DNA from: Anaerolineae bacterium
GTDB lineage: Bacteria > Chloroflexota > Anaerolineae > Aggregatilineales > Phototrophicaceae
Direction: 5' to 3'
DNA length: 64,000 nucleotides
NCBI GenBank assembly: GCA_034420635.1
Contig: DAOULD010000136.1
Span: 14,372-78,371 of the forward strand
Shown: positions 588 through 63,370 of the stretch, piece by piece
Numbering within the stretch: the stretch's first letter is position 1
Layout of the letters: the number at the start of each line of letters is the position of its first letter
The notes under the pieces: model-generated
Databases searched by the model: none
What the model saw: only the letters and a program-made list of their open reading frames with translations
What the model was told of the DNA's origin: nothing
Translations under genes and position numbers: made by a program

Positions 588-761
588 TGCGCACACTCCC
601 GTTATAGTTGTGCCGAAGCCTATTCACATTACGGATGATCTTAACGTTATCAAACTTACTTGCCTCTCCATCTGGTTGGTGAAAGATACTAGCGATGGTA
701 AACTGAATTCGGGCGTTGCTGGCGCGCAGGCTCAGATCATTCATGAAATGGAAACTTATGC

Positions 762-5399: not shown

Positions 5400-5460
5400 T
5401 GCGCGTTCTCGTGATAGCTTGATATCACACATTGTGAGTTTATTCTGAAACTACAGACAG

Positions 5461-9296: not shown

Positions 9297-11212
9297 AAGC
9301 AATGCGCGCCGATACTGCAAACGCCAGGAACAGGGATCTCAGCCATTTGTCCCTGCTCGCTCTAACGGTTGTTATATTGCTTTTCTCTTTTGCTGTTGGC
9401 GCGCGCGGGTTGAACGCGGACCTGGTGTGGAATGATGAATTGGCGTCGCTCACCAACTTCGGCGCCTTCAATAGGACACTGACCCTGCAAGGCGTGATCG
9501 AATTAATGCAGCAGTATAGTCCTGCGGATGTACCTGTTTTCCCCTGGATCGGCTACATATGGGCGCGACTAGCTGGATGGTCGCAATTTGCCCTGCGGTC
9601 GCTGTCTCTTTTTGCCGGTGTATTAATGATCGCCCAATTGAATAGCTTTGCGTCCAGAGTTTTCGATCGGCGGGTAGCCGTCGTTGCCTCGTATCTTATC
9701 GGGAGCAGTTCTTTCGTATTGCTTTACTTTCACGAGCTGCGAACCTATACGATTTTCATGCTCTTTGTCACTATCTATTTGACAGCCTATTGGGAGCTTG
9801 CTTTCGCTGCTCGCGCGACGTTTTTTCCCAGGCTGCTTATTCCAATATGTACGGTTGTCCTTCTCTATACGACAATTATTTCGTTAGTCTTTTTCGCGAC
9901 GCTTGCGATAATTCATGTCTTGTTCGCTCCAAAAAGGCGGCAGTGGATAGAGATCGTGTTGAGTTGGGTGCTTGGCGCGATGTTCATGCTTCCGTTCGCA
10001 GCATCGCACGCGCAAGGGGTGGGGCTGGTTACAAATGATGGGTTGGCCGCTTCCGCTCCCGAAGTTCTTTGTGCCTTCTTGCGTCTTGCCGTCAACGGCC
10101 TGGACTTTTTGTGGGCTCCGCTTATAGCTGTTGTGTGCTACGCGCTGTGGAAGACAGCCAATCGCGACCTGCTGCGATTAATCGCGTTTGCGGCGATCAC
10201 GGTCGCGCTCCTGCTGTTGGCGAACGACCAGTTCGCGCTAATTGCTGTAACGCGGATTCGTTATTTCCTGCTCGCCTGGATCCTACTTGTCGTCATTTTC
10301 GCATGCGGCTTGGTCTCATTGCCCCGTTGGAAGTTGCCTACGGTCGTTCTACTGGCGATATGGTTCGTGGCGGGCAGCCAGTTCGGACAATCTGCAGACT
10401 TCTCAACATATTATGCTGGCGCGAAAGCATCCGCGCCGGATGCGCCCCCGCTATCGCAAATTGTAACCCGCCTTCGAGGAAGGGCAGGACCTCAAGACTT
10501 CTTGCTTGGGTTTTATGAATCTTACGATCCGAACTATGTTTGGCAGGTCCACAGCGCCGGAAGCGTCGCCGACTACTACTTGAATACTCAACTGGGCATT
10601 GACGGCGTGTTTCTTCATGCGAATCGCAAACGCTATCGGCTGGAGGAAGACGTCCGGTCGATTCTCAGATCCCATCCTCACGTTCTGCTTGCCCACGACC
10701 CATTGAAAGTCCCGCTGAACTATGCCAGAACGCTTGCGATCATTGAAGAAGATTACCTAGCGTGCGCATCGTTGGTGGAGGAGCCGGCGCTGCGAATCCG
10801 CAAATATGCGCATCCCGTTATGGGCTGCAATCACCAACCCGCTCCCATTGATTACGACAATGACATACGATTAATTGACCGCGCCGCGCGTTACGATACC
10901 GACGCAGAGGTTGTTCAAGCGTTGACCTGGTGGGATGTCCCGGACGGCGAAATGCTGAACCAATACAATATTTCCTTGCAAATCATCACCTCGGATTGGC
11001 AAAACATTCGACAAATTGATCGCCATCTTTATGACGGATTGGTCCCTTGGAGTGTCATTGAACTGTCCACGGCAGATCTCCCCCTCGACGACTACCGGAT
11101 CATGTTGATCTTGTACAATCGAGAGAACGGGTCCAAAGTCCCAGGCGTCGATGAACTCAGCGGCGAATCGGCCGGTATTCTTCCGATTGCGTCTTTTTCC
11201 ATCGACACCTAG
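9293..11212 (+). CDS. GT-C fold membrane glycosyltransferase with C-terminal domain; paralog 4 of 8 (subgroup A)
   Basis: 639 aa. The ATG start overlaps the paralog-3 stop (ATGA). Motifs: VWNDELASL, SPADVPVFPWI, FHELRTYTIF, LLYTTIIS, HPHVLLAHDPLKVPLNYARTL, MGCNHQPAPIDYDND, YNISLQ, DDYRIMLILY. Confidence 0.8.
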   Translation: MKAMRADTANARNRDLSHLSLLALTVVILLFSFAVGARGLNADLVWNDELASLTNFGAFNRTLTLQGVIELMQQYSPADVPVFPWIGYIWARLAGWSQFALRSLSLFAGVLMIAQLNSFASRVFDRRVAVVASYLIGSSSFVLLYFHELRTYTIFMLFVTIYLTAYWELAFAARATFFPRLLIPICTVVLLYTTIISLVFFATLAIIHVLFAPKRRQWIEIVLSWVLGAMFMLPFAASHAQGVGLVTNDGLAASAPEVLCAFLRLAVNGLDFLWAPLIAVVCYALWKTANRDLLRLIAFAAITVALLLLANDQFALIAVTRIRYFLLAWILLVVIFACGLVSLPRWKLPTVVLLAIWFVAGSQFGQSADFSTYYAGAKASAPDAPPLSQIVTRLRGRAGPQDFLLGFYESYDPNYVWQVHSAGSVADYYLNTQLGIDGVFLHANRKRYRLEEDVRSILRSHPHVLLAHDPLKVPLNYARTLAIIEEDYLACASLVEEPALRIRKYAHPVMGCNHQPAPIDYDNDIRLIDRAARYDTDAEVVQALTWWDVPDGEMLNQYNISLQIITSDWQNIRQIDRHLYDGLVPWSVIELSTADLPLDDYRIMLILYNRENGSKVPGVDELSGESAGILPIASFSIDT

Positions 11213-22052: not shown

Positions 22053-22159
22053 CGCGAACCCGATGTGCGGACTGCCCGGGTGTATTTCAATATTTTGGGA
22101 GGATGCTCCAGGAACTACAAAAGCGCATCGCCCTTTGGCGGGTTCTACGTACGGATTCA

Positions 22160-22223
22160 CCACAGAGGCACAGAGCGCACAGAGATTTTAAGAAAAAACT
22201 TCGTGTTCTTCGTGCCTTTGTGG
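22160..22223 (+). repeat. Long imperfect hairpin repeat (25-nt arms, 14-nt A-rich loop)
   Basis: 5' arm CCACAGAGGCACAGAGCGCACAGAG (22160-22184), 3' arm CTTCGTGTTCTTCGTGCCTTTGTGG (22199-22223). On the + strand this gives 18 Watson-Crick pairs, 4 G:U pairs and 3 mismatches. The G:U pairs become C-A mismatches on the other strand. Confidence 0.5.
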
Positions 22224-28759: not shown

Positions 28760-28905
28760 CCGTATCCAACAAGCGAAATGAAATTTGAATTCGCCCGGTT
28801 GTGCGCAGCGTCGGCAACTAGAACATATTTGAGATTATAAACCCATGCTGCGATTCGCGCGCGGACCATACCCTGTAGAGCGGTGATCGCGCTGGCGCGT
28901 CGGGG

Positions 28906-39003: not shown

Positions 39004-39531
39004 TCACACGATCAGAATGACAATCGCGAGCAGAACCAAGATAGTCAGAGCCAAGAGATCTCCGCTACCGGTCAAGCCTCCGCCCAATAAGATCGCTGGC
39101 ATGGATCCCAGACCTAGATAGCTCACGCTGCCTTCCGCGGGAGCCGACAAAAGCTGCGGAAACGGATAACGGTTGATATCGAGAAAATACCAGACGGACC
39201 CAGCCAGGAAATAGCCATTGACGCAACCGGCTGCCGCGCCCAACAACCCGTTTCGAATGCGGCCTATTCTGCCTTCGGGATTGATGACTGCCTCGTTGCG
39301 GTAAGCGAATACGACAATCGCCGAAAAGACGCAAAGCTGCAACAAGAAGATCTGTCCATTCGTCAGAAGCATATACAGGCTGCCACGCAGCAAACTGTCA
39401 AATTGGAAGATGGCAAAAAATCCCAGCAGCATGGCAGTTGTGGCGATCAACTGGCGTTGCCATCCCTGGAGCGCGCCGATCAGGGCGAAGAAGATCGCCG
39501 TCCCCCACATTAACGATGCGAAACTAATCAA
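39004..39531 (-). CDS. CvpA-like small integral membrane protein (paralog b)
   Basis: 175 aa, about 4-5 TM segments. The N-terminal LIGALQGWQRQLIATTAMLLGFF resembles the GxxRGxxxE start of the CvpA family. It is clearly paralogous to 39596..40156 (NGYFLAGSVWYF versus NGYLLSGSIWYF). Confidence 0.5.
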   Translation of the reverse strand: MISFASLMWGTAIFFALIGALQGWQRQLIATTAMLLGFFAIFQFDSLLRGSLYMLLTNGQIFLLQLCVFSAIVVFAYRNEAVINPEGRIGRIRNGLLGAAAGCVNGYFLAGSVWYFLDINRYPFPQLLSAPAEGSVSYLGLGSMPAILLGGGLTGSGDLLALTILVLLAIVILIV

Positions 39532-39595
39532 GTTGCTCTATCCCATTTAAGTCACAGGAAAACCAGAATGCCGTACCGCCTCAATAAATACAGCG

Positions 39596-40156
39596 TCAAA
39601 TCAGGACCAGCACCACCACAAACAGAACGATGACCATCAACGAAAGAAGATCGCCCGAGGAGCCGGGTCCACCCGCCAGGACATAGAGCGGCAAATTCGC
39701 GATCGAGTGAGAGCTGAGCGAGCCATCTGCTGGCGCTTCCAGATACGGGGACAATGGGTAGTCGTTGATGTGCATGAAGTACCAGATTGAGCCGCTCAGG
39801 AGATAGCCGTTGGCAGCGCCAACAATGCCGCCCAGCACTTTGGACTGGGCCGGGTCTCGTCCTTCGCCGCCGGTCGCTTCGCGGGCGTCGCTGCCGATCA
39901 ACGCTCGAGTTTGGTAAGCGAAGAAGGCTATGGCCAAAAAGATGCCGACCTGGAAAAGAAACTTTTGCCCGGCTGCGAAGGGGGCCAGAAGTTGCTGTCG
40001 CAAGGCAGCATCGAATTGGTGAAGCGCAAAGAGGCCCAAAGTAATGCCGGCCATGGCGATGATCTCTTTGGTCCAGCCTCGTTGCAAGCCGACGAAAGCG
40101 AAACAGGCGACGAAGACCCACATCAACGCGACTAACTCCAGCATCTCAAGCTCCAC
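39596..40156 (-). CDS. CvpA-like small integral membrane protein (paralog a)
   Basis: 186 aa. Motifs: FVGLQRGWTKEIIAMAGITLGLF...ANGYLLSGSIWYF. An alternative ATG at 40144 would start 2 nt after the murG stop. Confidence 0.5.
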   Translation of the reverse strand: MELEMLELVALMWVFVACFAFVGLQRGWTKEIIAMAGITLGLFALHQFDAALRQQLLAPFAAGQKFLFQVGIFLAIAFFAYQTRALIGSDAREATGGEGRDPAQSKVLGGIVGAANGYLLSGSIWYFMHINDYPLSPYLEAPADGSLSSHSIANLPLYVLAGGPGSSGDLLSLMVIVLFVVVLVLI

Positions 40157-41249
40157 CGACTTCGATAAGCAAGTCCGCGAGGCGACGCGCGCCTTCGGCG
40201 TTTGCCAAGGCTCGAGAGTTTGCTCGCATCTCCTCCAATCGCGCGTCGTCGCGGATTAGCGATATGATCCTGTGGAACAATGATGATGCCATGTCCTCGT
40301 CGTTCAGGCGCAGCGCAGCGCCACGATCGCTCAGGTAATCCGCGTTGACGCTTTGGTAGCGCCAGGCATAGGGATAGGGGACGAGGATAGCTGGCAAAGC
40401 AAATAGAGGCAATTCCGCCAGGGTACTCGCGCCCGCTCGACAGACTGCCAGGTCCGCGGCTGCAAAAGCCAATCCCATATCCTCATGAAGATAAGGGAAG
40501 GGCCGATACTGCGGATGCCGCCTATACGCTTCCACCTGGGACATGCTCCGTTCCCAATCGAAGTCGCCGGTGATGTGTATGATCTGCAATCCCTCGTCCA
40601 GCAGCCGAGGCAGGCAGTCGCCAAGCGCGATATTGATGCTGCGAGCGCCGCGACTGCCCCCGAAAACCAGTAGCGTTTTGCCGGAGGGGTCCAGCTTAAA
40701 TCTCGTTATCGCTTGTTCCCGCGTCGCTTGCAAGCGATTTCCCTGCAAGGGATAACCGGTGACTACCGACCTTCCCGCAGGAAAATATTTGGCGGATTCG
40801 CTGACCGTAATCGCGATTCGCGATGCGAAGCGTTGCAAAGCCTTGATCGTCAATCCGGGTTCAATATCGGGCAAATAGATGACGATCGGTATGCTCAGCA
40901 TACGCGCCCCAAGCGCTAGCGGCAAGTTTGCCCAGCCACCTGTCAAGAGCGCGACGCCTGGTCGAAGGCTGCGTAGCCTGTTGAAGGCTTGCAGGGCGCC
41001 CAGGCTCAGTTTCGCGGCGCTGGAAACGACCGTCAATGAATCGACGCCGTGCAAGGGACCGGCGTGAAGCTCGTGGTAGGCTGCAAAAGGGATTCCCGAC
41101 TCCTGCACCAGCTTTCGTTCCATACCGCCCACCGCGCCGACAAAGAAAAGTTGATGTTCGCTATTGCCGTCGGCCAATAGCGCCCGGGCGGTTGCCAGCG
41201 CGGGATAGACGTGACCGCCGGTTCCCCCAGCCCCGATCAGTATTCGCAA
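40146..41249 (-). CDS. murG: Lipid II-forming UDP-GlcNAc transferase MurG
   Basis: 367 aa. A TTG start is preceded by GGAG. Motifs: ILIGAGGTGGHVYPALA, and C-terminal CRAGASTLAEL. Confidence 0.9.
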   Translation of the reverse strand: MRILIGAGGTGGHVYPALATARALLADGNSEHQLFFVGAVGGMERKLVQESGIPFAAYHELHAGPLHGVDSLTVVSSAAKLSLGALQAFNRLRSLRPGVALLTGGWANLPLALGARMLSIPIVIYLPDIEPGLTIKALQRFASRIAITVSESAKYFPAGRSVVTGYPLQGNRLQATREQAITRFKLDPSGKTLLVFGGSRGARSINIALGDCLPRLLDEGLQIIHITGDFDWERSMSQVEAYRRHPQYRPFPYLHEDMGLAFAAADLAVCRAGASTLAELPLFALPAILVPYPYAWRYQSVNADYLSDRGAALRLNDEDMASSLFHRIISLIRDDARLEEMRANSRALANAEGARRLADLLIEVGGA

Positions 41250-42486
41250 ACTCGTTTCTCCGTTCGGAAGCGCGCTTCCGCCACAATGCCACTCGCTGTA
41301 CGCTCAACATCAGGCCGATACCGATCATCACCACCATCAACGAAGATCCACCGAAGCTGATGAAGGGCAGGGGCACGCCCGTAGACGGTACGGCGTTTGT
41401 CATCACCGCGATGTTCAGCAAAGCCTGGACGATCACCCACGATGTGAAGCCGACGCAAAGCAGCGAGCCAAAGGTATCGCGCGCGTGCCGCGCCATCCGG
41501 AATCCCCGTATCGCCAAGGCGACGTAGAGCGCAACGACGACTGCGGCGCCCAAGACGCCAAACTCCTCGCCGATGACCGCAAAAATGCTATCGGTATGCG
41601 GCGCTGGCAAGGCGCCGAATTTCTGCGCTGATTGTCCCAATCCCACGCCAGTCCAGCCGCCCTTCATAAACGCGGCGATCGCCTGTTGGGTATGGTAGTT
41701 CGTCAAGGTCAGATCGTTGAGTCCCGCCAGAAAGTCGATAATACGGTTCTGCGCGTAGCCCAGCCCCGCGATCAACACATATGCAACAGCGCCAAGTAGT
41801 CCGCCCATCGCTATGATATGGAGCAGGTTCGCGCCGGCGACAAAAAACATGATGCCGGCCGTCAAGGCGACGATTGCCGCCGAACTCAGGTCCGGCTGTT
41901 GCGTAATCAAGAAGGCAATGACGCCAACGACCATTATGAAAGGCAGAAATCCAAAGAAAAAACTGCCGACCCGAGCATTCTTTGAACCGAGCCAAGCCGC
42001 CAAATAAACGACGATCGCGAATTCCGCCAGTTCGCCCGGCTGAAAGCGGCCCCCAACCAGGGAACGACGAGCGCCAAACTTGTCATCGCCCACCAGCAGC
42101 ACAGCGATCAGAGCGCCGATCGTGAAGAGCAGCAGCCATACCGAGAAGCGCTTCCAAAACCGATAGTCAACTGCCGCGAAGAATATGAGCGCAATACTGG
42201 AGAAGAAAACGTTACGCAGGTGCTCCTCCACGAAGAAGCCCGTAGCGGTCCCGTAAGTATTATTGCTCCAGTCAAACGTGGAACTGTAAACCATGAGCGA
42301 GCCGATTATCAAAAGCAGGATGACGATGGCGAGCAGCGGCTTGTCCAGCGTAGCGAAAAAACTGCGATTGACCGGCGCTAGTGGGCGAGCGCTATCGTCG
42401 CCGACAATTGTCAAGCCGGGACTGCGACTCAACCGCCGCCGAAACCGACGACGCCCGGTATCATTGTGGATGGCTTGTTCCGTCAT
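41161..42486 (-). CDS. ftsW: SEDS-family peptidoglycan glycosyltransferase FtsW
   Basis: The ORF track gives 41161..42627. ATG 42486 (MTEQAIHND) is the first start downstream of the murD stop (42524). It has 9-10 TM segments with QPGELAEF, PDLSSA and LPFISFGGSSL motifs. The 3' end overlaps murG by 89 nt. Confidence 0.85.
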   Translation of the reverse strand: MTEQAIHNDTGRRRFRRRLSRSPGLTIVGDDSARPLAPVNRSFFATLDKPLLAIVILLLIIGSLMVYSSTFDWSNNTYGTATGFFVEEHLRNVFFSSIALIFFAAVDYRFWKRFSVWLLLFTIGALIAVLLVGDDKFGARRSLVGGRFQPGELAEFAIVVYLAAWLGSKNARVGSFFFGFLPFIMVVGVIAFLITQQPDLSSAAIVALTAGIMFFVAGANLLHIIAMGGLLGAVAYVLIAGLGYAQNRIIDFLAGLNDLTLTNYHTQQAIAAFMKGGWTGVGLGQSAQKFGALPAPHTDSIFAVIGEEFGVLGAAVVVALYVALAIRGFRMARHARDTFGSLLCVGFTSWVIVQALLNIAVMTNAVPSTGVPLPFISFGGSSLMVVMIGIGLMLSVQRVALWRKRASERRNEFANTDRGWGNRRSRLSRAGNRPGAIGRRQ

Positions 42487-42523
42487 AGGACTCGCTCTTT
42501 GTCCGCCCACATGCGTAAATCCA

Positions 42524-43945
42524 TTATAGTGCAGATACCAATTGGCGAAAGTGATCTCCGCGCTCGGCAAAGTCGGCATAGGCATCGTAGCTCGTTCCGC
42601 CGGGCGACAAGAGCACAACATCACCATCTTGCGCGACTTCAGATGCGCGATGCACAGCCTCTTCCAGCGTCTGCGCCCGCAATACCTGATCGTCGCGGAC
42701 AGACATCAGCGAAAGCAGCTTCATGACCTTGATGGCGACCTGTTTCTCGCCCTCCTTGCCGAAGATGATGACATGGCGCGCTTTTGCCAGCGCCAACTGA
42801 ATCGCGCCTTCCCAAGGCAAGTCTTTGTCCGCGCCACCGATCAGCAATATCAGTGGTTCGTCGTAGCTTTGCAAGGCGGCAATCAGGCGTTCCGGCGCGG
42901 TAGCGATACTGTCATTCACGTATGTGACGCCGGCGATTCGGCGCACTGTCTCTAGTCGATGCTCCACCGGGCGAAAGGCGCGAATCGCCTCGCGCATCGC
43001 CTCGGGCATGACGCCGGGACGATCGATGGCTAATCCCATCGAACCGCTTATCGCGCAAGCCGCTAGGACATTCGCCGCATTATGATCGCCGCGCAGGGGG
43101 ATCTCGTCCCGCGGGCAGACAACATGCGGCGTCGAATCGTAACTGGCGGATCCTGCCACAAAAACACGATTACCTAATAGAAACGCGCCATCGGGCACCA
43201 GATCATAGGCGCTGAACGCCGACAGTTCGCCGCGAACAAGCTGCTCCATCGCGCGGCTGCCGGGGTCATCCCAGCCAAGCACGGCGACGTCTGTTTGCTT
43301 CTGGTATCGGATGATGTTGGCTTTGGCAGCGGCATAACGCTCCAGTGTGCCGTGCCGGTCAAGATGATTGGGCGTCAAGTTGAGCAGGGCAGCGACTTGC
43401 GGGCTGTTGCTCATCAACTCCAGTTGAAAACTGGAAAGCTCCATGACAACCACATCGTTTTTCGTGATTTTGGGAAGGTTTTCAACAAGCGGGTTTCCGA
43501 TATTGCCCCCCAGCCAGACCGTGTAGCCGGCTGCCCCCAGTATCTTTGCCACCAGGGCGGCGGTCGTTGTCTTCCCGGCGCTGCCGGTGATGCCAATGAC
43601 GGGGGCTGGGCACCGCTCGATAAACAATTGCGCGTCGTTGGTAAAGGGAATATTGCGCTTGCGCGCCAAGTCAAATATCGGCAGGTCCAGCGGAACCCCG
43701 CCGGAAACACAGATGGCTTTTGCGCCGATCAATACTTCTTCCGGATGTCCGCGCAGAAAGAAACGCGCACCGGGATATTGTGAGCGGCGGATGCCCAACT
43801 CTTTCGCGCCGCGACTATCTGTGACCACAACCTCGGCGCCGATGGTTGGCAACCAGCGCGCTAAGGCTCTTCCTTGCCGTCCAAAGCCGAATATGACAAT
43901 TCGTTTACCGGACAAGTAGTCTCGTGCTGGCATTAGTCGAGGCAA
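42524..43945 (-). CDS. murD: UDP-N-acetylmuramoylalanine--D-glutamate ligase
   Basis: 473 aa. Motifs: VIFGFGRQGRALARWL, the P-loop IGITGSAGKTTTAALV, and NDSIATAPER. Confidence 0.9.
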   Translation of the reverse strand: MPRLMPARDYLSGKRIVIFGFGRQGRALARWLPTIGAEVVVTDSRGAKELGIRRSQYPGARFFLRGHPEEVLIGAKAICVSGGVPLDLPIFDLARKRNIPFTNDAQLFIERCPAPVIGITGSAGKTTTAALVAKILGAAGYTVWLGGNIGNPLVENLPKITKNDVVVMELSSFQLELMSNSPQVAALLNLTPNHLDRHGTLERYAAAKANIIRYQKQTDVAVLGWDDPGSRAMEQLVRGELSAFSAYDLVPDGAFLLGNRVFVAGSASYDSTPHVVCPRDEIPLRGDHNAANVLAACAISGSMGLAIDRPGVMPEAMREAIRAFRPVEHRLETVRRIAGVTYVNDSIATAPERLIAALQSYDEPLILLIGGADKDLPWEGAIQLALAKARHVIIFGKEGEKQVAIKVMKLLSLMSVRDDQVLRAQTLEEAVHRASEVAQDGDVVLLSPGGTSYDAYADFAERGDHFRQLVSAL

Positions 43946-43956
43946 TCCTGAACCAG

Positions 43957-44037
43957 CGCTGCTCGGCGCGTAACCGGCGAAAAGATTCCAGGAATGTCGC
44001 GCTCGCGCAAAATAGCAAGTCTGCTTGTCGCACGAGC
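43957..44037 (-). repeat. ~80-nt interspersed intergenic repeat, copy D (forward on the minus strand)
   Basis: The minus strand reads GCTCGTGCGAC-22nt-GAGCGCGACATTCCTGGAATCTTTTCGCCGGTTACGCGCCGAGCA. The 45-nt core has 5 mismatches and no gaps against copy A. The copy fills most of the mraY-murD spacer. Confidence 0.8.
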
Positions 44038-44072
44038 GCCGCAGTCTACATAAACAGGTGGGAGCGCGCGCA

Positions 44073-45122
44073 TCAAAGCGGTCCGAGCGCGCGCTGCCGC
44101 AGCAGCGCCAATGCCACGCCGATGAATGCGCAAAGAATGCTGATCAGCCAAAAGCGCTGTACGATTTGCGTCTCGCTCCAGCCGCCCAATTCAAAGTGAT
44201 GATGTATTGGCGTGCGGCGAAAGGGCCGGATATCCACGCCGTAAAAGCGTCGGCTCAACTTGGCGGAAGCCACTTGCAAAATCACGCTCAAAATCTCCAT
44301 AACGGGCACGATCGCGATAATCGGCAACAAGAGCCACTGACCGGTCATAACCGCGACCGTGCCGAGCGTCGCGCCCAGAGCCAGGGAGCCCGTATCTCCC
44401 ATAAACAACTGTGCGGGATGCGCGTTGTACCAGAGAAATGCGAAACAAGCGCCGACGACTATGAAACAAAGGTCAATCAAGAAAATCTGATTCTGCAAAT
44501 AGGCGATAACGCCGTAAGCGCCGAAGGCGCTCGCGGTCACTATACCGGCAAGACCATCCAATCCATCGGTGAAATTGGTCGCGTTGGAACTGCCGATGAT
44601 GATAAAGGTGCTGATCGCGATAAAGATTAACGGATGCAATGGGATTTCTACCGGTATCAGCGGAAGCGGCATGGAGTTGGCGTAGGAAAAGCCAACCTGT
44701 GACATGATGGTGGATGCGATCAAAGCCAAGACAATCTGTCCCAGAAACTTCACTTTGCCGGACAAGCCTTCGCCGACGCTGCCCCGCGATGTCTGTATTC
44801 CTTCCCAATCGTCGATCAAGCCCAACAGAGCGAACCCAATCAATACCGACAGCGGCAGCAAGATGCTGCGCCCTTCGCCTTCCTGAACAATCCGTGAGAT
44901 ATTGAGAGCGAGCGTGATGGCAATTGTTGGCAGGATGATCATGATCCCGCCCATCGTTGGTGTGCCGACTTTCTTCACATGCGCGCTGTCCATCAACTCT
45001 GCGCGGATCTGCTTGCCGAGCTTGAAGCGGTGCAGGATCTCTACAAAGGGACCACCCCAGATAACACCCAGTAAGAATGTCGCCCCACCTACGCTTAATG
45101 CCAGCGGTAGTTTCGCCTCCAT
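44073..45122 (-). CDS. mraY: Phospho-N-acetylmuramoyl-pentapeptide transferase
   Basis: The ORF track gives 44073..45197. ATG 45122 (MEAKLPLAL) follows the ftsI stop by 13 nt. Motifs: GTPTMGG, LIDDW, NATNFTDGLDGLA, and the polytopic HHHFEL. Confidence 0.9.
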   Translation of the reverse strand: MEAKLPLALSVGGATFLLGVIWGGPFVEILHRFKLGKQIRAELMDSAHVKKVGTPTMGGIMIILPTIAITLALNISRIVQEGEGRSILLPLSVLIGFALLGLIDDWEGIQTSRGSVGEGLSGKVKFLGQIVLALIASTIMSQVGFSYANSMPLPLIPVEIPLHPLIFIAISTFIIIGSSNATNFTDGLDGLAGIVTASAFGAYGVIAYLQNQIFLIDLCFIVVGACFAFLWYNAHPAQLFMGDTGSLALGATLGTVAVMTGQWLLLPIIAIVPVMEILSVILQVASAKLSRRFYGVDIRPFRRTPIHHHFELGGWSETQIVQRFWLISILCAFIGVALALLRQRALGPL

Positions 45123-45135
45123 CTGCAGCGGGTCC

Positions 45136-46884
45136 TCAGCTTCCGACCGAACTGATATTGCGCGTGGAGCGCGCCAGGTTGTGCCGTACCTCGTCAACCG
45201 GTATCTCCAGCAAGATCACCAGTCGATCGGCCAGACGCCGGAATACCGGCGCGGCGACTTCGTAGCCGTAGTAATCATCAGGCCGATCCAACTTGACCAT
45301 GACGACGACTTGCGGATCGTCTGCCGGTAAAAATCCAATAAACGTCACGATGGATGAATTGCGGCCCACTTCATAGTCCAGGGCGGTTGCGATGCGCGCG
45401 GTGCCGGCCTTCCCGGCGATAGTATAGCCGGGCAGTTGCGCCGCTGGCGCCCCTTCGGCGACCGATTGCACCAATAGATCGGTGACAATACTGGCGGTCT
45501 CCTCGGAAATGACGCGGCGTATGGTGATCGCCTGCGCGTTTTGCACGCCATCTTCGGTGATCGCCTGGCGCACGATGCGGGGCTGACGCATGATGCCGTT
45601 GTTGGCGATTGCCGCAAAAGCCGTAATCATTTGCAGGGGCGTGGCCTTCATGCGCTGCCCATAGCTGTTCAGTCCCAGATAGCTTTCCGACCAATTGCTA
45701 TCGCCGGGCGTCTTGAGTTCGCCGCTTTCTTCCGCGAACAGATCGACGCCGGTAATCTGTCCCAAACCAAATGCGCGCATCATGCTGTAGAAATTGTCCA
45801 TGCCCATCTCGAGAGCGATGGTGGCGGCGCCAACATTGACGGAACGAACAAGTATTTGAGCGACGTCTATGGCGCCGTGGGTTTGGAAGCGCCGGTTCCA
45901 AATCTTGTAGCCGCCTACGTCAAGGTTTCCCTCGTCATTGTAAGTCCAGTACGGTGTGATGGCGCCTGTTTCCAAGCCTGCGGCAACCGTCAGCGCTTGC
46001 ACGATAGATCCAGGCTCAAAGTCTTCGTTGATGGACGGATTTAGCAAGAGATTAGGGTCTTCGATTTCCAAGAAGGTGTTGGGGTCCAGTTTAGGATCGT
46101 TGGCCATGGCGAGAATATCGCCGTTACGCGGATCCATGACAATGGCAGAGCCTCGGAACGCGCCCGATTCCAGAACCGCTCTTTCTAATTCTGATTCCAC
46201 CCAGAACTGGACATCCCGATCCAAGGTTAGCAGGATGTCTTGGCCTCGCTGATCGGTCGGTACATCCTCCGGCAAGTCAATCGGAACATTGCTGATGGAA
46301 AGATCCAGAACACGGCCGGCCAAGGTGTCGTTGTAGGCGCCTTCGACGCCCATCGCGCCTTTAAGCTGCTCGTCAACAACGAAGCCGATCACATGGCCCG
46401 CCAAGGGACCCTGTGGATAAAAGCGCTTCGGTATCCTTTCCAGATCAACGGAAATCTCGTCGAGGGCGGCAATTGCCTGTCCTTGGTCCGCCGAAATGGG
46501 ACCGGCGACGAACTCCCAGAGATTCTCGCTGGTGGCGCGACGATGTATCTCGAACTCATCGATATCGAGGATAAGCGCGAGTTGCCTGCTGAGGCCTAAA
46601 GCATCAGCTACCAGGCTAGGGCTGACGCCAACACGATACTGCAATGCGTTAAAGGCGAGGGGTTCGCCGTCTCGGTCATAAATCAGGCCGCGTTCCGCGG
46701 GTATCCTGCGCGTCGAACTGGTGATGGCGCTCCCTCGCCGTTCCATCTCCTGTCGGACCGAGCGCGGGAAAAACTGGAAGTTTGCCAGGTTTATCACCAG
46801 GTAACCAGCCATCACGATGAGAAAGATGATCACGAAAGGCAGTCGTGAATGGATTGTTGTCTGCTGGGAGGAAGGTCCTTGCAT
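45136..46884 (-). CDS. ftsI: Class B penicillin-binding protein (FtsI/PBP2-type) with non-canonical active-site motifs
   Basis: 582 aa with an N-terminal TM anchor, a dimerisation domain and a transpeptidase domain. FEPGSIVQALTVAAGLE sits where (Y/F)EPGSxxK is expected, RSVNVG provides SxN, and AGKAGTA sits where KTGT is expected. The dcw position between ftsL and mraY supports the call. Confidence 0.8.
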   Translation of the reverse strand: MQGPSSQQTTIHSRLPFVIIFLIVMAGYLVINLANFQFFPRSVRQEMERRGSAITSSTRRIPAERGLIYDRDGEPLAFNALQYRVGVSPSLVADALGLSRQLALILDIDEFEIHRRATSENLWEFVAGPISADQGQAIAALDEISVDLERIPKRFYPQGPLAGHVIGFVVDEQLKGAMGVEGAYNDTLAGRVLDLSISNVPIDLPEDVPTDQRGQDILLTLDRDVQFWVESELERAVLESGAFRGSAIVMDPRNGDILAMANDPKLDPNTFLEIEDPNLLLNPSINEDFEPGSIVQALTVAAGLETGAITPYWTYNDEGNLDVGGYKIWNRRFQTHGAIDVAQILVRSVNVGAATIALEMGMDNFYSMMRAFGLGQITGVDLFAEESGELKTPGDSNWSESYLGLNSYGQRMKATPLQMITAFAAIANNGIMRQPRIVRQAITEDGVQNAQAITIRRVISEETASIVTDLLVQSVAEGAPAAQLPGYTIAGKAGTARIATALDYEVGRNSSIVTFIGFLPADDPQVVVMVKLDRPDDYYGYEVAAPVFRRLADRLVILLEIPVDEVRHNLARSTRNISSVGS

Positions 46885-46901
46885 AAAAAGGGCTTCTCGC
46901 G

Positions 46902-47408
46902 CTAGCTGCCAAAGGCTTCGATTTGTTCTCGCAAAGTCGCTAGTTGCCGCTGTATCCAGCCATTGAATGTCTCATCATAGACCGGACTTGGATCCTGGTT
47001 AGCGCGCGCGCTCGCCGCTTCCGCAAAGGAATTTCTGCGCGTCGGGCTGTAGCCCTCGATCACCACATAATCTATTTCATCGTTGGTCGCCGGGCGAAAA
47101 CCGATATCTTGGGCGCGCAGTGTCAAGCGCGGGACCGTACGAAACCGGGCAATCTCTGCGATTAACTGTTCATTTGTGTATTTGAGTTCGTCACGCTGGA
47201 CAATCAAGTCTTCAATGGTTCGGTTGGTGATGGCGAAGGACGCGACCTGTGAGAGATAGATGCTGCCAAGCGCGAGCAAAATAGCGGTGCCGAGGATCGC
47301 AAGCATCGCCGCTTGATTGCGGGCATAGAAGCGTTTGCGGCTAAGCGTATGTTGAAACCAATTCTGTGCCATCTTACTCTTTTTTGATTTGCTCCCTTGC
47401 TCATGCAA
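46902..47408 (-). CDS. ftsL: FtsL-like cell division protein (single TM plus coiled coil)
   Basis: 168 aa. A basic N-terminus and the TM segment AMLAILGTAILLALGSIYL are followed by a coiled-coil-like TNRTIEDLIVQRDELKYTNEQLIAEIA. The TTG start at 47408 lies inside repeat copy A, so ATG 47372 (MAQNWFQ) is a plausible true start. Confidence 0.5.
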   Translation of the reverse strand: MHEQGSKSKKSKMAQNWFQHTLSRKRFYARNQAAMLAILGTAILLALGSIYLSQVASFAITNRTIEDLIVQRDELKYTNEQLIAEIARFRTVPRLTLRAQDIGFRPATNDEIDYVVIEGYSPTRRNSFAEAASARANQDPSPVYDETFNGWIQRQLATLREQIEAFGS

Positions 47409-47476
47409 GTAGTGTGATTACTATTTCATATGAGCGCGACATTCCTGGGACCCTTTCGCCGGTTACGCGCCCAGCG
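47399..47476 (+). repeat. ~80-nt interspersed intergenic repeat, copy A (forward on the plus strand)
   Basis: GCTCATGCAAG-22nt-GAGCGCGACATTCCTGGGACCCTTTCGCCGGTTACGCGCCCAGCG. It lies in the rsmH-ftsL spacer, antisense to the dcw transcript. Confidence 0.8.
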
Positions 47477-47593
47477 ACTATTGATTGGTCTTTCCGAACA
47501 GTTGCTCAGCCGACTGTAAGTCCAGGGTCTTGCTAAAGCCGGCGCAAACATAGTTACAAATTTATCAAAAACGCGATATTTCGCAACAGAGGT

Positions 47594-48592
47594 TCAATCG
47601 AACTTCAACTTTTCGACGACCCTCAGCTTGGCGCTACGGCTCCGCGGGTTGCTACTTAGCTCTATATCACCGGGCACGATCGGTTTTCGATTGACGAGCC
47701 TGACCAGCGCTCGCTTTTCTTCAATTGACGCCATGCCCGGCGGAGCGACAACCTCCTGCGCCAGGTCCCGGAAGCTCCGCTTGACGATACGGTCTTCCAG
47801 GCTGTGAAAGGCGATCACTGCCAGTCTCCCGCCGGGACGCAACAAGTCGACGGCGATCGGCAGCGCCTTTTCCAGGGATTCCAATTCCCGGTTAACTGCG
47901 ATGCGCAGCGCTTGAAACACCTTGGTAGCCGGGTGAATCTTCGTCATTCGCCGCCGCTTGGGGACCACGGTTTTGACAAGGCTTGCCAACTCGCCTGTGC
48001 TTCGTATCGGTCTCTGAGCTACGATAGCGCCGGCGATCTTGCTGGCGGCCTTCTCTTCCCCCAATCGAAAGAAGAGGTCGGCAAGGTCTTTCTCTGGAAG
48101 GGAGTTAAGCAGTCTTTCCGCAGTGACGCTTTCGTTCAAAGCGTCGAAGCGCATGTCGAGCGGGCCCTCGTGTCGGAACGCGAAGCCGCGCCCGGGATCG
48201 TCCAGTTGCATGGACGAGAGGCCCAAGTCCAATATGATGGCGTCGACCGCGCGCCAGCCGCGCTGGAATGCCACAGCGCGCATATCGACATAACTAGCTT
48301 GCGCGACGGTCACGCGTTCAAGATACGGCGCCAGATTGCGGCGGGCGATCTCAATCGCGGTATCGTCAAGATCAAATGCCAATACTTCCCCGGCGCCCGC
48401 TTGCAGCATGGCGCGCGTGTGTCCGCCGGCTCCAAGCGTCCCGTCAATGACTCGGTTGAGCCTCCCGTCGGAGGGGGGCGTCAGTCGAAGCAATGGCTCA
48501 ACAAGCACTGGTATGTGCGCGCTCACAAGTTGTAATCCCTTCGCGCTTGGTGAATCCAATTGTAGCTTGTTTTGCGATGCGAGCCCCCTCAT
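47594..48592 (-). CDS. rsmH: 16S rRNA (cytosine1402-N4)-methyltransferase
   Basis: 332 aa. Motifs: HIPVLVEPLL, VIDGTLGAGGHT, ILDLGLSSMQLD, AVIAFHSLEDRIVK. The true start may be internal. Confidence 0.9.
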   Translation of the reverse strand: MRGLASQNKLQLDSPSAKGLQLVSAHIPVLVEPLLRLTPPSDGRLNRVIDGTLGAGGHTRAMLQAGAGEVLAFDLDDTAIEIARRNLAPYLERVTVAQASYVDMRAVAFQRGWRAVDAIILDLGLSSMQLDDPGRGFAFRHEGPLDMRFDALNESVTAERLLNSLPEKDLADLFFRLGEEKAASKIAGAIVAQRPIRSTGELASLVKTVVPKRRRMTKIHPATKVFQALRIAVNRELESLEKALPIAVDLLRPGGRLAVIAFHSLEDRIVKRSFRDLAQEVVAPPGMASIEEKRALVRLVNRKPIVPGDIELSSNPRSRSAKLRVVEKLKFD

Positions 48593-48627
48593 TTTGCCCG
48601 CTATGTCGTTCTCCGCAACAGCGTATC

Positions 48628-61221: not shown

Positions 61222-62085
61222 ATGATATCGTTAACTCGCCAGGGATCCTCCCTTTGCCGTTGTTTTCTATTTCTCTGTATCACGGCACTGGTTGCAGGAT
61301 GCATGCTGACGGAGGTCAATCCAAGAAGATCTGCGCCGACGGCAATGCCTTTACCGCCGCGGCCAGTTGCCGAACCGACGACCGAGATATTATCGTCTGA
61401 AGAACTTTATAGGGACGACGCGAGCGTCATTGGACGCACGGACCCGAGTTTCGCCTCCTTGCCTGTCGACGCGGTACTTCCGCCAGCGCCTTTAGGGGAT
61501 TCCACGCGTCGCGTCAAGGTCGTTTTGGAAGACGGCTCCGTTTTAGAAGGCGAACGCTACGGTTTCAGCGTGTTGCGCCAGCCGGGAATACTGATATTGA
61601 GTCGGGACGTTTCCAATTGGCGTCCGCTGACCAAACGCTTGGCGGAGCGGGGGTTTGTCGTCTTGGTCCTCGAAACCGGCGGTTGGTTGGAAGCGCATCA
61701 CCTGACGACAATATTGCGCTCCCTGACCGCCATCAGCAAGGTAGACGCGGGCTGGATTGCCATTATTGGCGCGGAACGCTCCGCCGACCTGGCGCTGCTC
61801 GGCTGCGCTGTCAACGAATTGTGCGACGCTGCCGCGCTCCTCAGCCCCTTGTCCCGGGATACATTGCTGAACATGCTGTTGAGCTATGGCGCGCGACCGC
61901 TCTGGCTGGCTGCGGCAAGGGACGATGCCGAAGCCCATGCCGCGGCTCGGGCGCTGGCGCGCTCCGCCTCTGGCGAGGCGCAGCTACTCGAATTCGATCG
62001 GGGCAGAGGTGTAGAATTGCTGGTCAATCAACCCGAAATCGTGGACCAACTGGCGGAGTGGCTGTCATTGAATCTTGGCGGCTGA
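61222..62085 (+). CDS. Putative lipoprotein with an alpha/beta-hydrolase-like fold and no clear nucleophile elbow
   Basis: The ORF track starts at 61195. ATG 61222 gives a signal peptide with the lipobox LVAGC. FVVLVLETGG...IAIIGAERSADLAL...LWLAAARDD resembles a dienelactone-hydrolase-like topology, but GxSxG is absent. Confidence 0.4.
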   Translation: MISLTRQGSSLCRCFLFLCITALVAGCMLTEVNPRRSAPTAMPLPPRPVAEPTTEILSSEELYRDDASVIGRTDPSFASLPVDAVLPPAPLGDSTRRVKVVLEDGSVLEGERYGFSVLRQPGILILSRDVSNWRPLTKRLAERGFVVLVLETGGWLEAHHLTTILRSLTAISKVDAGWIAIIGAERSADLALLGCAVNELCDAAALLSPLSRDTLLNMLLSYGARPLWLAAARDDAEAHAAARALARSASGEAQLLEFDRGRGVELLVNQPEIVDQLAEWLSLNLGG

Positions 62086-62137
62086 AGCCGATTAAAGGGG
62101 CAGCCGGTTGGCTGTCTCTCATCTAATAGATCGCGTC

Positions 62138-62215
62138 GCTCATGCAAGGAAAGGACTTGTTATTTTGCGTGAGCGCGACATTCTTGTGGACAATTCGCCG
62201 GTTACGCGCCGAGCG
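62138..62215 (+). repeat. ~80-nt interspersed intergenic repeat, copy B (forward on the plus strand)
   Basis: GCTCATGCAAG-22nt-GAGCGCGACATTCTTGTGGACAATTCGCCGGTTACGCGCCGAGCG. It ends 15 nt before the probable M20 start codon. Confidence 0.8.
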
Positions 62216-62230
62216 GCTGAAAGGGGAAAG

Positions 62231-63370
62231 ATGTCGGAATTGCTCAATTATTTCGCAGATCGTACAGAATCCATGCTAGACGCGCTGACGGAGATGGTCA
62301 GGCGCGAGTCCTTCACGCGCGAGAAGGCGCAGGTCGACCGGCTCGTCGACTGGATGGGTGAGCGGTTCCAAGCCATGAAGGCCGATTCGATCCTCCGCTA
62401 TCCGCAGGAAACATGCGGCGACTTTTTGCTGGCCAAGTGGAACGCGGACGCGCCCGGCAAGCCATTCCTTTTCTTGGTCCACGTCGATACCGTGCATCCG
62501 ATCGGATCGCTGGAAACCATGCCGATCAAGATCGAGGACGGACGCTATTATGGTCCCGGCTCACTTGATATGAAGGGCGGCACGGTCATTGCTCTGGAGG
62601 CCATCGACGGTTTGAGGAAGCGAAGCCAGTTGCCGGCTCGTCCTATTCTCTTTTTGGTGACCACGGAAGAAGAAATCGGCAGCCCCGTTTCCGAACCGCT
62701 GATCAAGCGACTGGCAGCGCATAGCGAACTTGTGCTAGTGATGGAGCCAGCAACCAAAGAAGGCACGATCAAAACCTGGCGCAAGGGCGGCGGCAAATAC
62801 GAGTTGATCGTGAAAGGGAGGGCGGCGCACGCCGGCATCGCGCCACAGGAAGGCATTAACGCCATCATTGAATTTGCGCAGCAGGCTCTGGAAATCAATC
62901 GGCTGAACGATCTCAAGTATGGCACATCAGTCTCGATTACTGTGGTAGAGGGAGGCTCCGCCGGCAACGTGATTCCGGCGCGGGTCGAAGCTCATATTGA
63001 TACGCGCGTCATGACCATCGACGCGATGAATAGCCTGCACGACGCGCTTACCAGTCTCTATCCCAAGATGCCCGGCGCAAAGGTGATTTGCAGGCGGCAC
63101 GGGCATCGCCCGCCCATGGAACGTCGCTCGGGCTTGTTTGAAAAGGCGAGGTCCATTGGCGACAAGCACGGGATAACAATATTCGAAGGCGGAACCGGCG
63201 GTGGCTCGGACGGCAATTTCACTGCGGCCATGGGCGTTCCCACGCTGGATGGCTTGGGCGCGCATGGCGATGGCGCGCATGCGCCCCACGAACACGTCAT
63301 TATCAGCAGCTTGCCGCGCCAGGCGGCATTGATCGCGGCGCTGCTCCTGGAGTGGAACGCCGAAGGCTGA
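62231..63370 (+). CDS. M20 family metallopeptidase (carboxypeptidase G2 / glutamate carboxypeptidase-like)
   Basis: The ORF track starts at 62108 and would read through repeat copy B. ATG 62231 (MSELLNYF) is preceded by GGGGAAAG. Motifs: LVHVDTVHP, GPGSLDMKGG, TTEEEIGS, and C-terminal GGGSDGNF. Confidence 0.8.
   Translation: MSELLNYFADRTESMLDALTEMVRRESFTREKAQVDRLVDWMGERFQAMKADSILRYPQETCGDFLLAKWNADAPGKPFLFLVHVDTVHPIGSLETMPIKIEDGRYYGPGSLDMKGGTVIALEAIDGLRKRSQLPARPILFLVTTEEEIGSPVSEPLIKRLAAHSELVLVMEPATKEGTIKTWRKGGGKYELIVKGRAAHAGIAPQEGINAIIEFAQQALEINRLNDLKYGTSVSITVVEGGSAGNVIPARVEAHIDTRVMTIDAMNSLHDALTSLYPKMPGAKVICRRHGHRPPMERRSGLFEKARSIGDKHGITIFEGGTGGGSDGNFTAAMGVPTLDGLGAHGDGAHAPHEHVIISSLPRQAALIAALLLEWNAEG

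Follow-up and report, generated by a model that had tools for sequence, protein, structure and literature searches.

The 64,000-nucleotide (nt) stretch of contig DAOULD010000136.1 analyzed here (the window), from an Anaerolineae bacterium, has a G+C content of 55% and carries three copies of a short interspersed repeat: copies A and D inside the otherwise compact cell-division (dcw) cluster, and copy B upstream of an M20 peptidase gene. The places, orientations, and gap-free likeness over 80 nt that the initial annotation assigned to them are borne out by direct alignment, and its mismatch counts for the core (5 of 45 for A versus D and 7 of 45 for A versus B) are correct by direct sequence comparison. 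The unit is longer than the ~80 nt proposed there, since its ends in an alignment with ~90 copies from other genomes place the full length at ~103 nt, from a CT at the 5' end to a CT at the 3' end. The copies and the parts of copy A referred to below are as follows.

47377..47479 (+), copy A, full unit; 5' CT at 47377-47378, 3' CT at 47478-47479
47396..47409 (+), H1, the first hairpin of copy A, CTTGC-TCAT-GCAAG; in most other copies this position is GTCGC-TCAT-GCGAC
47422..47479 (+), conserved 3' half of copy A: TATTT-box, GAGCGCGACA, hairpin-forming segment, TTCGCCGGTTACGCGCC, and tail ..AGCGA-CT
43957..44057 (-), copy D, full unit; 5' CT at 44057-44056, 3' CT mutated to CG in the window
62116..62218 (+), copy B, full unit, upstream of the M20 peptidase gene

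All three are long forms of the repeat. Copy A, antisense to the dcw genes, occupies the spacer between rsmH and ftsL and begins 5 nt upstream of the ftsL ATG (47372). Copy D occupies the mraY-murD spacer, sense relative to the dcw genes, and its ortholog in the related genome JAJEFB01, which is 95% identical to the window over 8 kb, retains the 3' CT. Copy B has on one side a hairpin that follows the stop codon of the upstream gene and on the other the M20 peptidase ribosome-binding site (the gene starts at ATG 62231).

A 40-nt pattern, GAGCGCGACATTC-N10-TTCGCCGGTTACGCGCC, has exactly three matches in the window and none in 100 dinucleotide-preserving shuffles. An nhmmer model built from copies A, D, and B finds each of them again at E values of 1e-28 to 1e-29, a circular result in that the same three sequences went into the model, and independent support for the family comes instead from the 40-nt pattern and from copies in other genomes. 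Against the same model, the rest of the window yields nothing better than an E value of 0.26, and the degenerate relatives once suspected near 28785 and 21243 go undetected even at E <= 100.

Distribution and genomic context

The genome-scale search brought the further copies that the initial annotation had anticipated. When one genome from each of 185,579 species was scanned with the exact pattern, 41 loci were recovered, all of them in ~6 Chloroflexota/Anaerolineae metagenome-assembled genomes (MAGs). The carrier genomes are GCA_022820665.1 (JAJEFB01), JAPOOU01, WTGF01, JAPOWG01, JAPOVL01, and CBDBFY01. Searching these loci (each <= 8 kb) with nhmmer yielded 62 copies, so many loci carry additional copies that had not been selected by the pattern. 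The pattern of the short form matched 16 metagenome contigs, mostly from MKWU01, an assembly from the sponge Aplysina aerophoba (PMC5649159). In total, ~90 copies were recovered, their neighbors and orientations were tabulated, and alignments of 43, then 59, and then 92 copies were built. A scan of viral contigs with the pattern returned no match, and a phage origin was dropped on that ground. Its occurrence is thus limited to a handful of closely related MAGs of sponge-associated Anaerolineae and to contigs from sponge metagenomes, and we found no description of such a repeat in the literature on repeats of sponge Chloroflexi.

In sequence that was not selected for the presence of a copy, there are 3 copies in the 64-kb window and 4 in ~43 kb of JAJEFB (loci L042 and L046), and the density in affected genomes is roughly one copy per 10 to 20 kb. 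By extrapolation rather than by count, each genome would hold a few hundred copies. Repeats of this density are a likely cause of the broken assemblies of sponge-symbiont MAGs.

Gene context came from a simple gene caller based on codon usage, whose output was compared with the called genes of L042 as a check. By this measure, 56 of the 57 scorable copies are intergenic. Copies lie in sense (14) and antisense (17) orientation between tandem genes, between divergent genes (16), and between convergent genes (9), with no strand bias relative to their neighbors. This random orientation argues against a leader, a riboswitch, or a promoter cassette.

Anatomy of the unit and its landing sites

The family consensus is CCTGTTTATGTAAACCGCGTCGCTCATGCGACGAGAAGGCTTACTATTTTGCGTGAGCGCGACATTCCTGGGACCTTTTCGCCGGTTACGCGCCGAGCGGCTG. 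Copies open with CT and a T-rich, partly palindromic stretch (GTTTAC/GTAAAC, or TTTTTTAATAAAC), the 5' end taking the form CT-GTTTACGTAAACC or CT-CTTTTTTAATAAACC, and they close with the tail GCCGAGCGG-CT, which folds in the short form as GCCGC-CGA-GCGGC. The CT is present at the 5' end in 63 of 68 copies and at the 3' end in 77 of 83. The first hairpin, H1, differs among subfamilies (GTCGC/GCGAC, CCTTGC/GCAAGG, CACATTG/CAATGTG, and TCCGC-GCGA-GCGGA) with its pairing kept. Counting pairs over 59 copies gives 34 double-change cells for H1, as against 18.4 +/- 3.1 in shuffled alignments, and none of 500 shuffles reached as high a value; one pair is GC in 37 copies and CG in 12, and another is CG in 32, UA in 10, and UG in 10. 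The position before H1 is GTAA, ATAA, or GAAA in nearly all copies, with GTAG found there only in window copy D, and the CGTC within H1 is paired.

H1 is followed by a well-conserved linker, TATTTTGYGTGAGCGCG, and by a second hairpin position that at least three unrelated hairpins can fill:

Long form, GCGCG..CTGG[GACCTTTTCG]CCGG..CGCGC
Short form, GCGGCAG[ACCTTTTCG]CTGCCGC
Other forms, CTGATA-CTTC-TATCAG and GCTGC-TGT-GCAGC

The 3' half is the best-conserved part of the family and is not palindromic. No terminal inverted repeats are visible in the 59-copy alignment, in which the 5' end (CTGTTTATGTAAACC or CTCTTTTTTAATAAACC) does not match the reverse-complemented 3' end (AGCCGCTCGGCG). The pair GTAAACCGCG and CGCCGGTTAC was considered for this role and rejected, its resemblance being weak and neither covarying nor terminal. 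H1 (GTCGC-TCAT-GCGAC) and the tail hairpin of the short form (GCCGC-CGA-GCGGC) are loosely alike, and the junction is fixed only at CT. Judged from its sequence, the CT pair at the ends fits a 2-nt target duplication, a recombination core, and microhomology alike. Tandem head-to-tail copies (in L023, L027, L032, and L046) have a single CT in common, and the tail of the element, a hairpin and then CT, therefore looks like its target.

The main feature of the element, which the first reading of the sequence had not seen, is that it inserts at a CT next to hairpins belonging to other repeat families. In about a quarter of copies, a strong G+C-rich hairpin ends right at the 5' border. The 34 nt upstream of copies fold to a mean of -7.4 kcal/mol, versus -4.5 kcal/mol for the 34 nt downstream (Mann-Whitney test, p = 1.4e-4), and folds of <= -10 kcal/mol occur in 16 of 68 upstream flanks, compared with 5 of 81 downstream flanks.

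The commonest of these hairpins belongs to a classical family of GTAG-tagged repetitive extragenic palindromes (REPs) in the related genomes, GGGCGAC-N7-GTCGCCC-CTACA (TGTAG-GGGCGAC... on the other strand), which has variable loops and a few recurring flank types. The loci contain ~30 sites of this REP and the window none; it is abundant in the related MAGs and in the A. aerophoba contigs. The element is positioned precisely at the boundary of GTCGCCC and CTACA, with the 3' arm on one side and the CTAC tag on the other, in 10 or more loci, and the contigs concerned also contain unoccupied REP units whose left and right flanks are the same. At least three REP unit types are seen both occupied and unoccupied.

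The second target is a long imperfect palindrome that ends ..GTGCCT-CT-GTGGTGAAT and belongs to a family rich in CTCTGTG units (ACCACAAAGGCACGAAG..CTCTGTGCGCTCTGTGCCTCTGTGGTGAAT); the element enters at GCCT-CT-GTGG, near the foot of the palindrome. Occupied and unoccupied versions can be paired here as well (L028:7688 with L030:1, and L005 with L024, L041, and L047). The sites of both target families are listed below.

GTAG REP sites: L004 6717; L006 93; L017 101, 7575, and 7714; L022 633, 807, 5279, and 5453; L028 896; L037 4749; L054-L065 (many)
REP pair in L058: unoccupied, GTCGCCC/CTACAAATCGTTGC; occupied, GTCGCCC/CTGTTTACG...GAGCGG/CTACAGATCGTTGC
22155..22223 (-) of the window, second palindrome, unoccupied and not the repeat itself: ACCACAAAGGCACGAAGAACACGAAG..CTCTGTGCGCTCTGTGCCT-CT-GTGGTGAAT; the CT used elsewhere corresponds to 22165-22164
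Second palindrome, occupied: L005 1751; L028 7688
Second palindrome, unoccupied: L024 ~2311; L041 ~2798 (-); L047 2752, 13981, and 18892; L030 1

The form of the 5' end goes with the 3' flank: copies that start with CTGTTTAC are followed by ACA in 12 of 15 cases, and copies that start with CT(C)TTTTT are followed by GTG in 9 of 15. The orientation of the element relative to the hairpin is fixed. Many copies have no obvious repeat target, which, together with the second type of target, suggests looser or multiple specificities. This uncultured sponge-associated Anaerolineae lineage thus harbors an interacting set of repeats, comprising the GTAG REP, the second long palindrome, and the element that lands in both.

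The REP clusters of L022 form two arms of 281 nt (566-846 and 5260-5540) that are 98% complementary and flank 4.4 kb of ordinary genes (asparagine synthase and M42 peptidase). Such a pair of arms could be a substrate for inversion.

Occupied and empty orthologous sites

Loci orthologous to the three window sites were obtained through homologs of FtsI (sites A and D) and of the M20 peptidase (site B). Two of them, L043 and L048, represent a single related genome (ERZ27276918 k141_72613).

Site A, rsmH-ftsL: long form in the window; orthologous copy at 9405-9504 in L042 (JAJEFB); decayed copy in L043; empty in L044; short-form remnant at a different position within the spacer in L045
Site D, mraY-murD: long form in the window, spacer of 139 nt; orthologous copy in L042, spacer of 139 nt; strongly diverged, short-form-like copy in L043; unit absent in L044 (spacer of 40 nt) and L045 (spacer of 50 nt)
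Site B, upstream of the M20 peptidase gene: long form in the window; two short forms in tandem, together with ~900 bp of other DNA, in L046 (JAJEFB); decayed copy in L048; empty in L047 and L049 (..GGCTGCCTT/TGAAAGGGGAAAGATG)

Neighboring genes are intact in the relatives that are without copies. The more distant relatives, with identities of 78 to 90% in FtsI (L044 and L045) and 86 to 89% in the M20 peptidase (L047 and L049), have no copies or only remnants in stretches of 21 kb. Copies come and go, and the repeat behaves as mobile or at least rapidly turning-over DNA. This turnover is fast enough to produce differences between genomes that are ~95% identical, and the repeat could serve for strain typing.

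Several insertions and neighboring features also came to light. The ~900 bp of extra DNA in JAJEFB (L046 8940-9815, equivalent to window ~62085-62116) precedes the tandem copies, has no counterpart in the window or in L047-L049, and contains internal repeats (CGGTCAGTGTCCACGCGACC twice and GGTATTTCAAGGG twice) and an open reading frame (ORF) of 167 amino acids (aa) without a Pfam hit. Relative to window positions 646-662, L034 has a 290-bp insertion (960-1248) that holds a truncated copy of the element, its 5' part only, and is flanked by an imperfect direct repeat of ~25 nt (GGTTATCAAACTTACTTGTCCC / GGTTATCAAAGTTACTTGCCCC).

The dcw cluster itself, at ~39500-48600 (-) in the window and 8503-21749 in L042, runs in the order rsmH, ftsL, ftsI, mraY, murD, ftsW, and murG, followed by two CvpA-like genes, an unannotated 175-aa ORF, murC, murB, ftsQ, and ftsA. 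There is no mraZ upstream of rsmH, where uvrC occupies the place on the other strand, and murE and murF are absent between ftsI and mraY. Between a serA-like gene and uvrC, L043 encodes a nucleotidyltransferase/HepT-like (MNT-HEPN) toxin-antitoxin pair (5653-6316); the same place holds an unannotated 207-aa ORF in L042 and nothing in L044 and L045. Elsewhere in the window, segments at ~4727-5963, 6755-7212, 8658-9211, and 10592-11139 align with the same stretches of L034 (67 to 79% identity), which suggests that the region of ~4700-11150 contains a tandem family of paralogous genes.

Proposed mobilization, rival readings, and known systems

Taken together, these results lead us to regard the three stretches, with moderate confidence, as copies of a noncoding, nonautonomous, site-specific mobile DNA element of ~103 nt. 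A recombinase encoded elsewhere in the genome would recognize the conserved ends and would join the element to its target at the CT core beside a hairpin, in one orientation. The 3' end of the element, itself a hairpin plus CT, would mimic the target and would thereby account for the tandem arrays. The mobilizing enzyme may be an IS110-family bridge recombinase or a REP-associated Y1 transposase (RAYT), acting in trans; among these two routes, our analysis gives slightly more weight to the IS110-like one. At none of its three sites in the window is the element likely to serve a dedicated function; its side effects there would be spurious ORFs, ~100 nt of extra hairpin-forming sequence in the dcw cluster, and displaced sequence upstream of ftsL.

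Several observations weigh against a mobile element of this kind. The empty sites matching the window copies come from genomes that are 10 to 20% diverged, and their junctions are not base-exact. Some of the occupied REP units could have spread as composites and not through one insertion after another. Between orthologous copies, identity is 92 to 96% in the 3' half and 76 to 91% in the 5' half (0.94, 0.92, and 0.96 for the 3' halves of the orthologous pairs versus 0.76, 0.91, and 0.83 for the 5' halves, with copy A and its JAJEFB ortholog at 94% and 76%, and with the 5' half once replaced outright), a difference not obviously expected of a purely selfish, decaying insertion, although the conservation of the 3' half is inflated in that several pairs were chosen by an exact match in that same half. 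No autonomous parent, in the form of 5' and 3' halves separated by a gene, was present in the loci examined, and tblastn with probes for the IS200 and IS608 TnpA proteins detected no Y1 transposase in the 586 kb searched. The only transposases seen were a DDE enzyme of IS1182/IS5 type and an OrfA of IS3 type, neither of which is expected to move the element.

Other candidates for a parent or a mobilizer were also considered. The loci examined contain no candidate for an IS110-type parent with the same ends (DEDD/serine recombinase, PF01548 and PF02371; bridge RNA), and no long repeats are common to nonorthologous loci among the first 41. The DDE transposase (L063 1628-3277 [-]; 549 aa, DDE_Tnp_1_6 and DUF772) is encoded between REP units, ~200 nt from a copy of the element, and was rejected as the mobilizer because its IS1182/IS5-like type is not the kind of enzyme expected. 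The 281-nt inverted repeats of L022 were rejected as the ends of a parent because they enclose housekeeping genes and not a transposase.

The conservation of the 3' half could reflect selection in place (for example, on a protein-binding site), homogenization between copies, or an effect of how the loci were selected. If selection is the cause, the repeat might be a DNA site that serves the host, like the bacterial interspersed mosaic elements (BIMEs) and REPs of Escherichia coli, with the 3' half (GTGAGCGCGRCA..TTCGCYG..GCCGAGCGGCT) bound by a nucleoid-associated or regulatory protein, or with hairpins that punctuate transcription and mRNA decay. Copies would then be kept by selection wherever they had landed, an explanation that is compatible with spread by transposition. 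At orthologous sites, conservation of the 3' half equals that of the flanking DNA, which is partly coding, and the 5' half is less conserved; the same core is kept across several species whose flanks differ by 5 to 11%; and two copies are found within the dcw cluster, with the third, copy B, directly upstream of a ribosome-binding site. We nevertheless consider a host-serving site unlikely: close relatives are without copies at all three window sites and have intact neighboring genes, copies favor neither one orientation nor one type of intergenic region, and the selection of pairs through an exact match in the 3' half bears on the very conservation to be explained. Moreover, one related genome (L043 and L048) has only decayed copies at these places, so retention is not universal.

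A structured noncoding RNA, whether a multicopy small RNA or a cis-regulatory leader acting through its hairpins and single-stranded linkers, would account for the compensatory changes that keep H1 paired and for a second position filled by three unrelated hairpins, and both B and D immediately precede genes in the sense direction. However, conserved hairpins are equally expected if a transposase recognizes the element as single-stranded DNA, and copies face either way relative to their neighbors equally often. Rfam, which covers RNA families only and whose search the initial annotation had called for, returned no match at gathering scores in the whole window and none at E <= 10 for copy D. 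The RNAalifold consensus of 59 copies has 4 invariant pairs and an energy of -2.3 kcal/mol, and folding z-scores are just -1.0 to -1.7. A long helix, H2 (GCUCAUGC/GCGUGAGC), that appears in folds of single sequences is often broken, with covariation not above that of shuffles, and only the overlapping H1 covaries. The copies contain no sigma-70-like promoter, and the sole terminator-like hit, in copy B, is weak and within the number expected by chance. The suggestion of a cis-acting RNA therefore fared poorly, and we regard an RNA of either sort as very improbable. A promoter or terminator cassette was likewise dropped, there being no sigma-70-like site in the three copies and, over the whole scanned region, 25 terminator-like hits versus 21 expected by chance, and sigma-54 sites, integron attC sites, and group II introns were set aside by eye because spacings and consensus positions do not fit and the intron models of Rfam were unmatched.

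The three window copies do share the open frame ERDI..SPVTR.A, as the initial annotation had recognized, and this frame is open in 86 of 88 copies overall and lengthens ORFs, real or spurious, with 62108..63370 among them. A single protein-coding sequence, duplicated and then broken into fragments, could leave such a frame, but the other two frames are also open, in 78 and 72 of 88 copies, and variability at the three codon positions (0.106, 0.161, and 0.102) has no third-position excess. Lengths from core to end fall at 35 to 38, 42 to 44, and 47 to 49 nt, with differences that are not multiples of three; one-base indels separate copies; and copies lie between genes in both orientations. On these sequence features, the probability of a coding origin appears close to nil, and we take it as refuted for practical purposes.

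The open frame has practical consequences for annotation, as it creates false ORFs and N-terminal extensions, including those from the TTG at 62108 (M20 peptidase) and the TTG at 47408 (ftsL). Knowledge of the family corrects both starts. For ftsL, the ATG at 47372, preferred from the outset, agrees with four relatives whose FtsL proteins of 155 to 156 aa begin at the equivalent ATG, among them the repeat-free L044.

Returning to the mobile element, a more specific version has it as a natural, recombinase-less cargo of an IS110-type, bridge-RNA-guided recombinase, with donor ends around the CT core, movement in trans, and two subfamilies directed to GTCGCCC-CT-ACA and GCCT-CT-GTGG. We hold this version tentatively and think it rather doubtful; more speculative is its extension, in which the variable hairpin loops would carry guide-like information. 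We know of no nonautonomous IS110 derivatives of this sort. If an IS110-type bridge recombinase or a RAYT is indeed the mobilizer, dozens of natural junctions between donor and target would make the specificity of the enzyme readable, and the family would be a natural example of a short cargo mobilized in trans. The repeat is potentially valuable, then, as a natural record of the specificity of a site-specific recombinase.

The proposal that the repeat is like a REP or a miniature inverted-repeat transposable element (MITE) holds in part. It is a high-copy, intergenic, noncoding, interspersed repeat that is present or absent among relatives, and in being short, noncoding, and multicopy it agrees with MITEs, but it is not a classical MITE, having neither terminal inverted repeats nor a TA-type duplication and inserting precisely beside hairpins. 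Correia, RUP, BOX, and ERIC elements are of a similar size class and are noncoding, intergenic, and present in many copies through lineage-specific expansion. The pneumococcal BOX, with its A, B, and C segments, is also similar in being modular with interchangeable segments, and in functional terms the family resembles modular repeats of the BIME, BOX, and ERIC type. Palindrome-associated transposable elements (PATEs) of the IS200/IS605 group are comparable in lacking inverted ends, in having subterminal hairpins near both ends, and in oriented insertion 3' of a short fixed sequence; unlike in PATEs, whose similar end hairpins are recognized by a Y1 TnpA and whose fixed sequence is a tetra- or pentanucleotide, the two end hairpins of the element are not clearly alike, and the fixed sequence is only CT.

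REPs are single palindromes of 20 to 40 nt with an unpaired GTAG or CGTC tag (PMC3733652). The element is not a classical REP, in that it is a composite of 103 nt with two or three hairpin positions, has GTAA in place of an unpaired GTAG or CGTC tag, and is best conserved in a part that is not palindromic. It shares with REPs and BIMEs an intergenic, high-copy distribution, hairpins with conserved linkers, mosaic and tandem arrangements, and variability between strains; its host genomes carry a GTAG REP beside the element, and the GTAA that precedes H1 is one base from GTAG. RAYT (TnpA-REP) binds GTAG-tagged REPs on single-stranded DNA, cuts between C and T, with one site overlapping CTAC, and rejoins at the same dinucleotide, with mosaic and tandem REP arrays as proposed products (PMC3333891).

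The bridge recombinases of the IS110 family target REPs, excise circles, leave no inverted ends, and act at a short core sequence. For IS621, a member of the family, this core is CT and the target within E. coli REPs is ATCAGGC-CT-AC; a donor of 22 bp is enough when the bridge RNA is provided in trans (PMC11208160). The element resembles IS621 in having the CT core between the 3' arm of a REP and the rest of the CTAC tag (ATCAGGC-CT-AC in IS621 and GTCGCCC-CT-ACA here). As at an IS110-type junction and target, it has CT on both sides, no terminal inverted repeats, and an oriented insertion into a repeat, its direction fixed relative to the hairpin, and its head-to-tail junctions, which read right end-CT-left end, resemble a circle junction. 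It differs in that its ~103 nt encode neither a recombinase nor a bridge RNA of the known size, 177 nt. The family is a previously undescribed, short, hairpin-targeting, CT-bounded interspersed repeat of sponge-associated Anaerolineae, which on present evidence is not a new category of biology and takes its place beside these systems as a familiar kind of bacterial mobile repeat.

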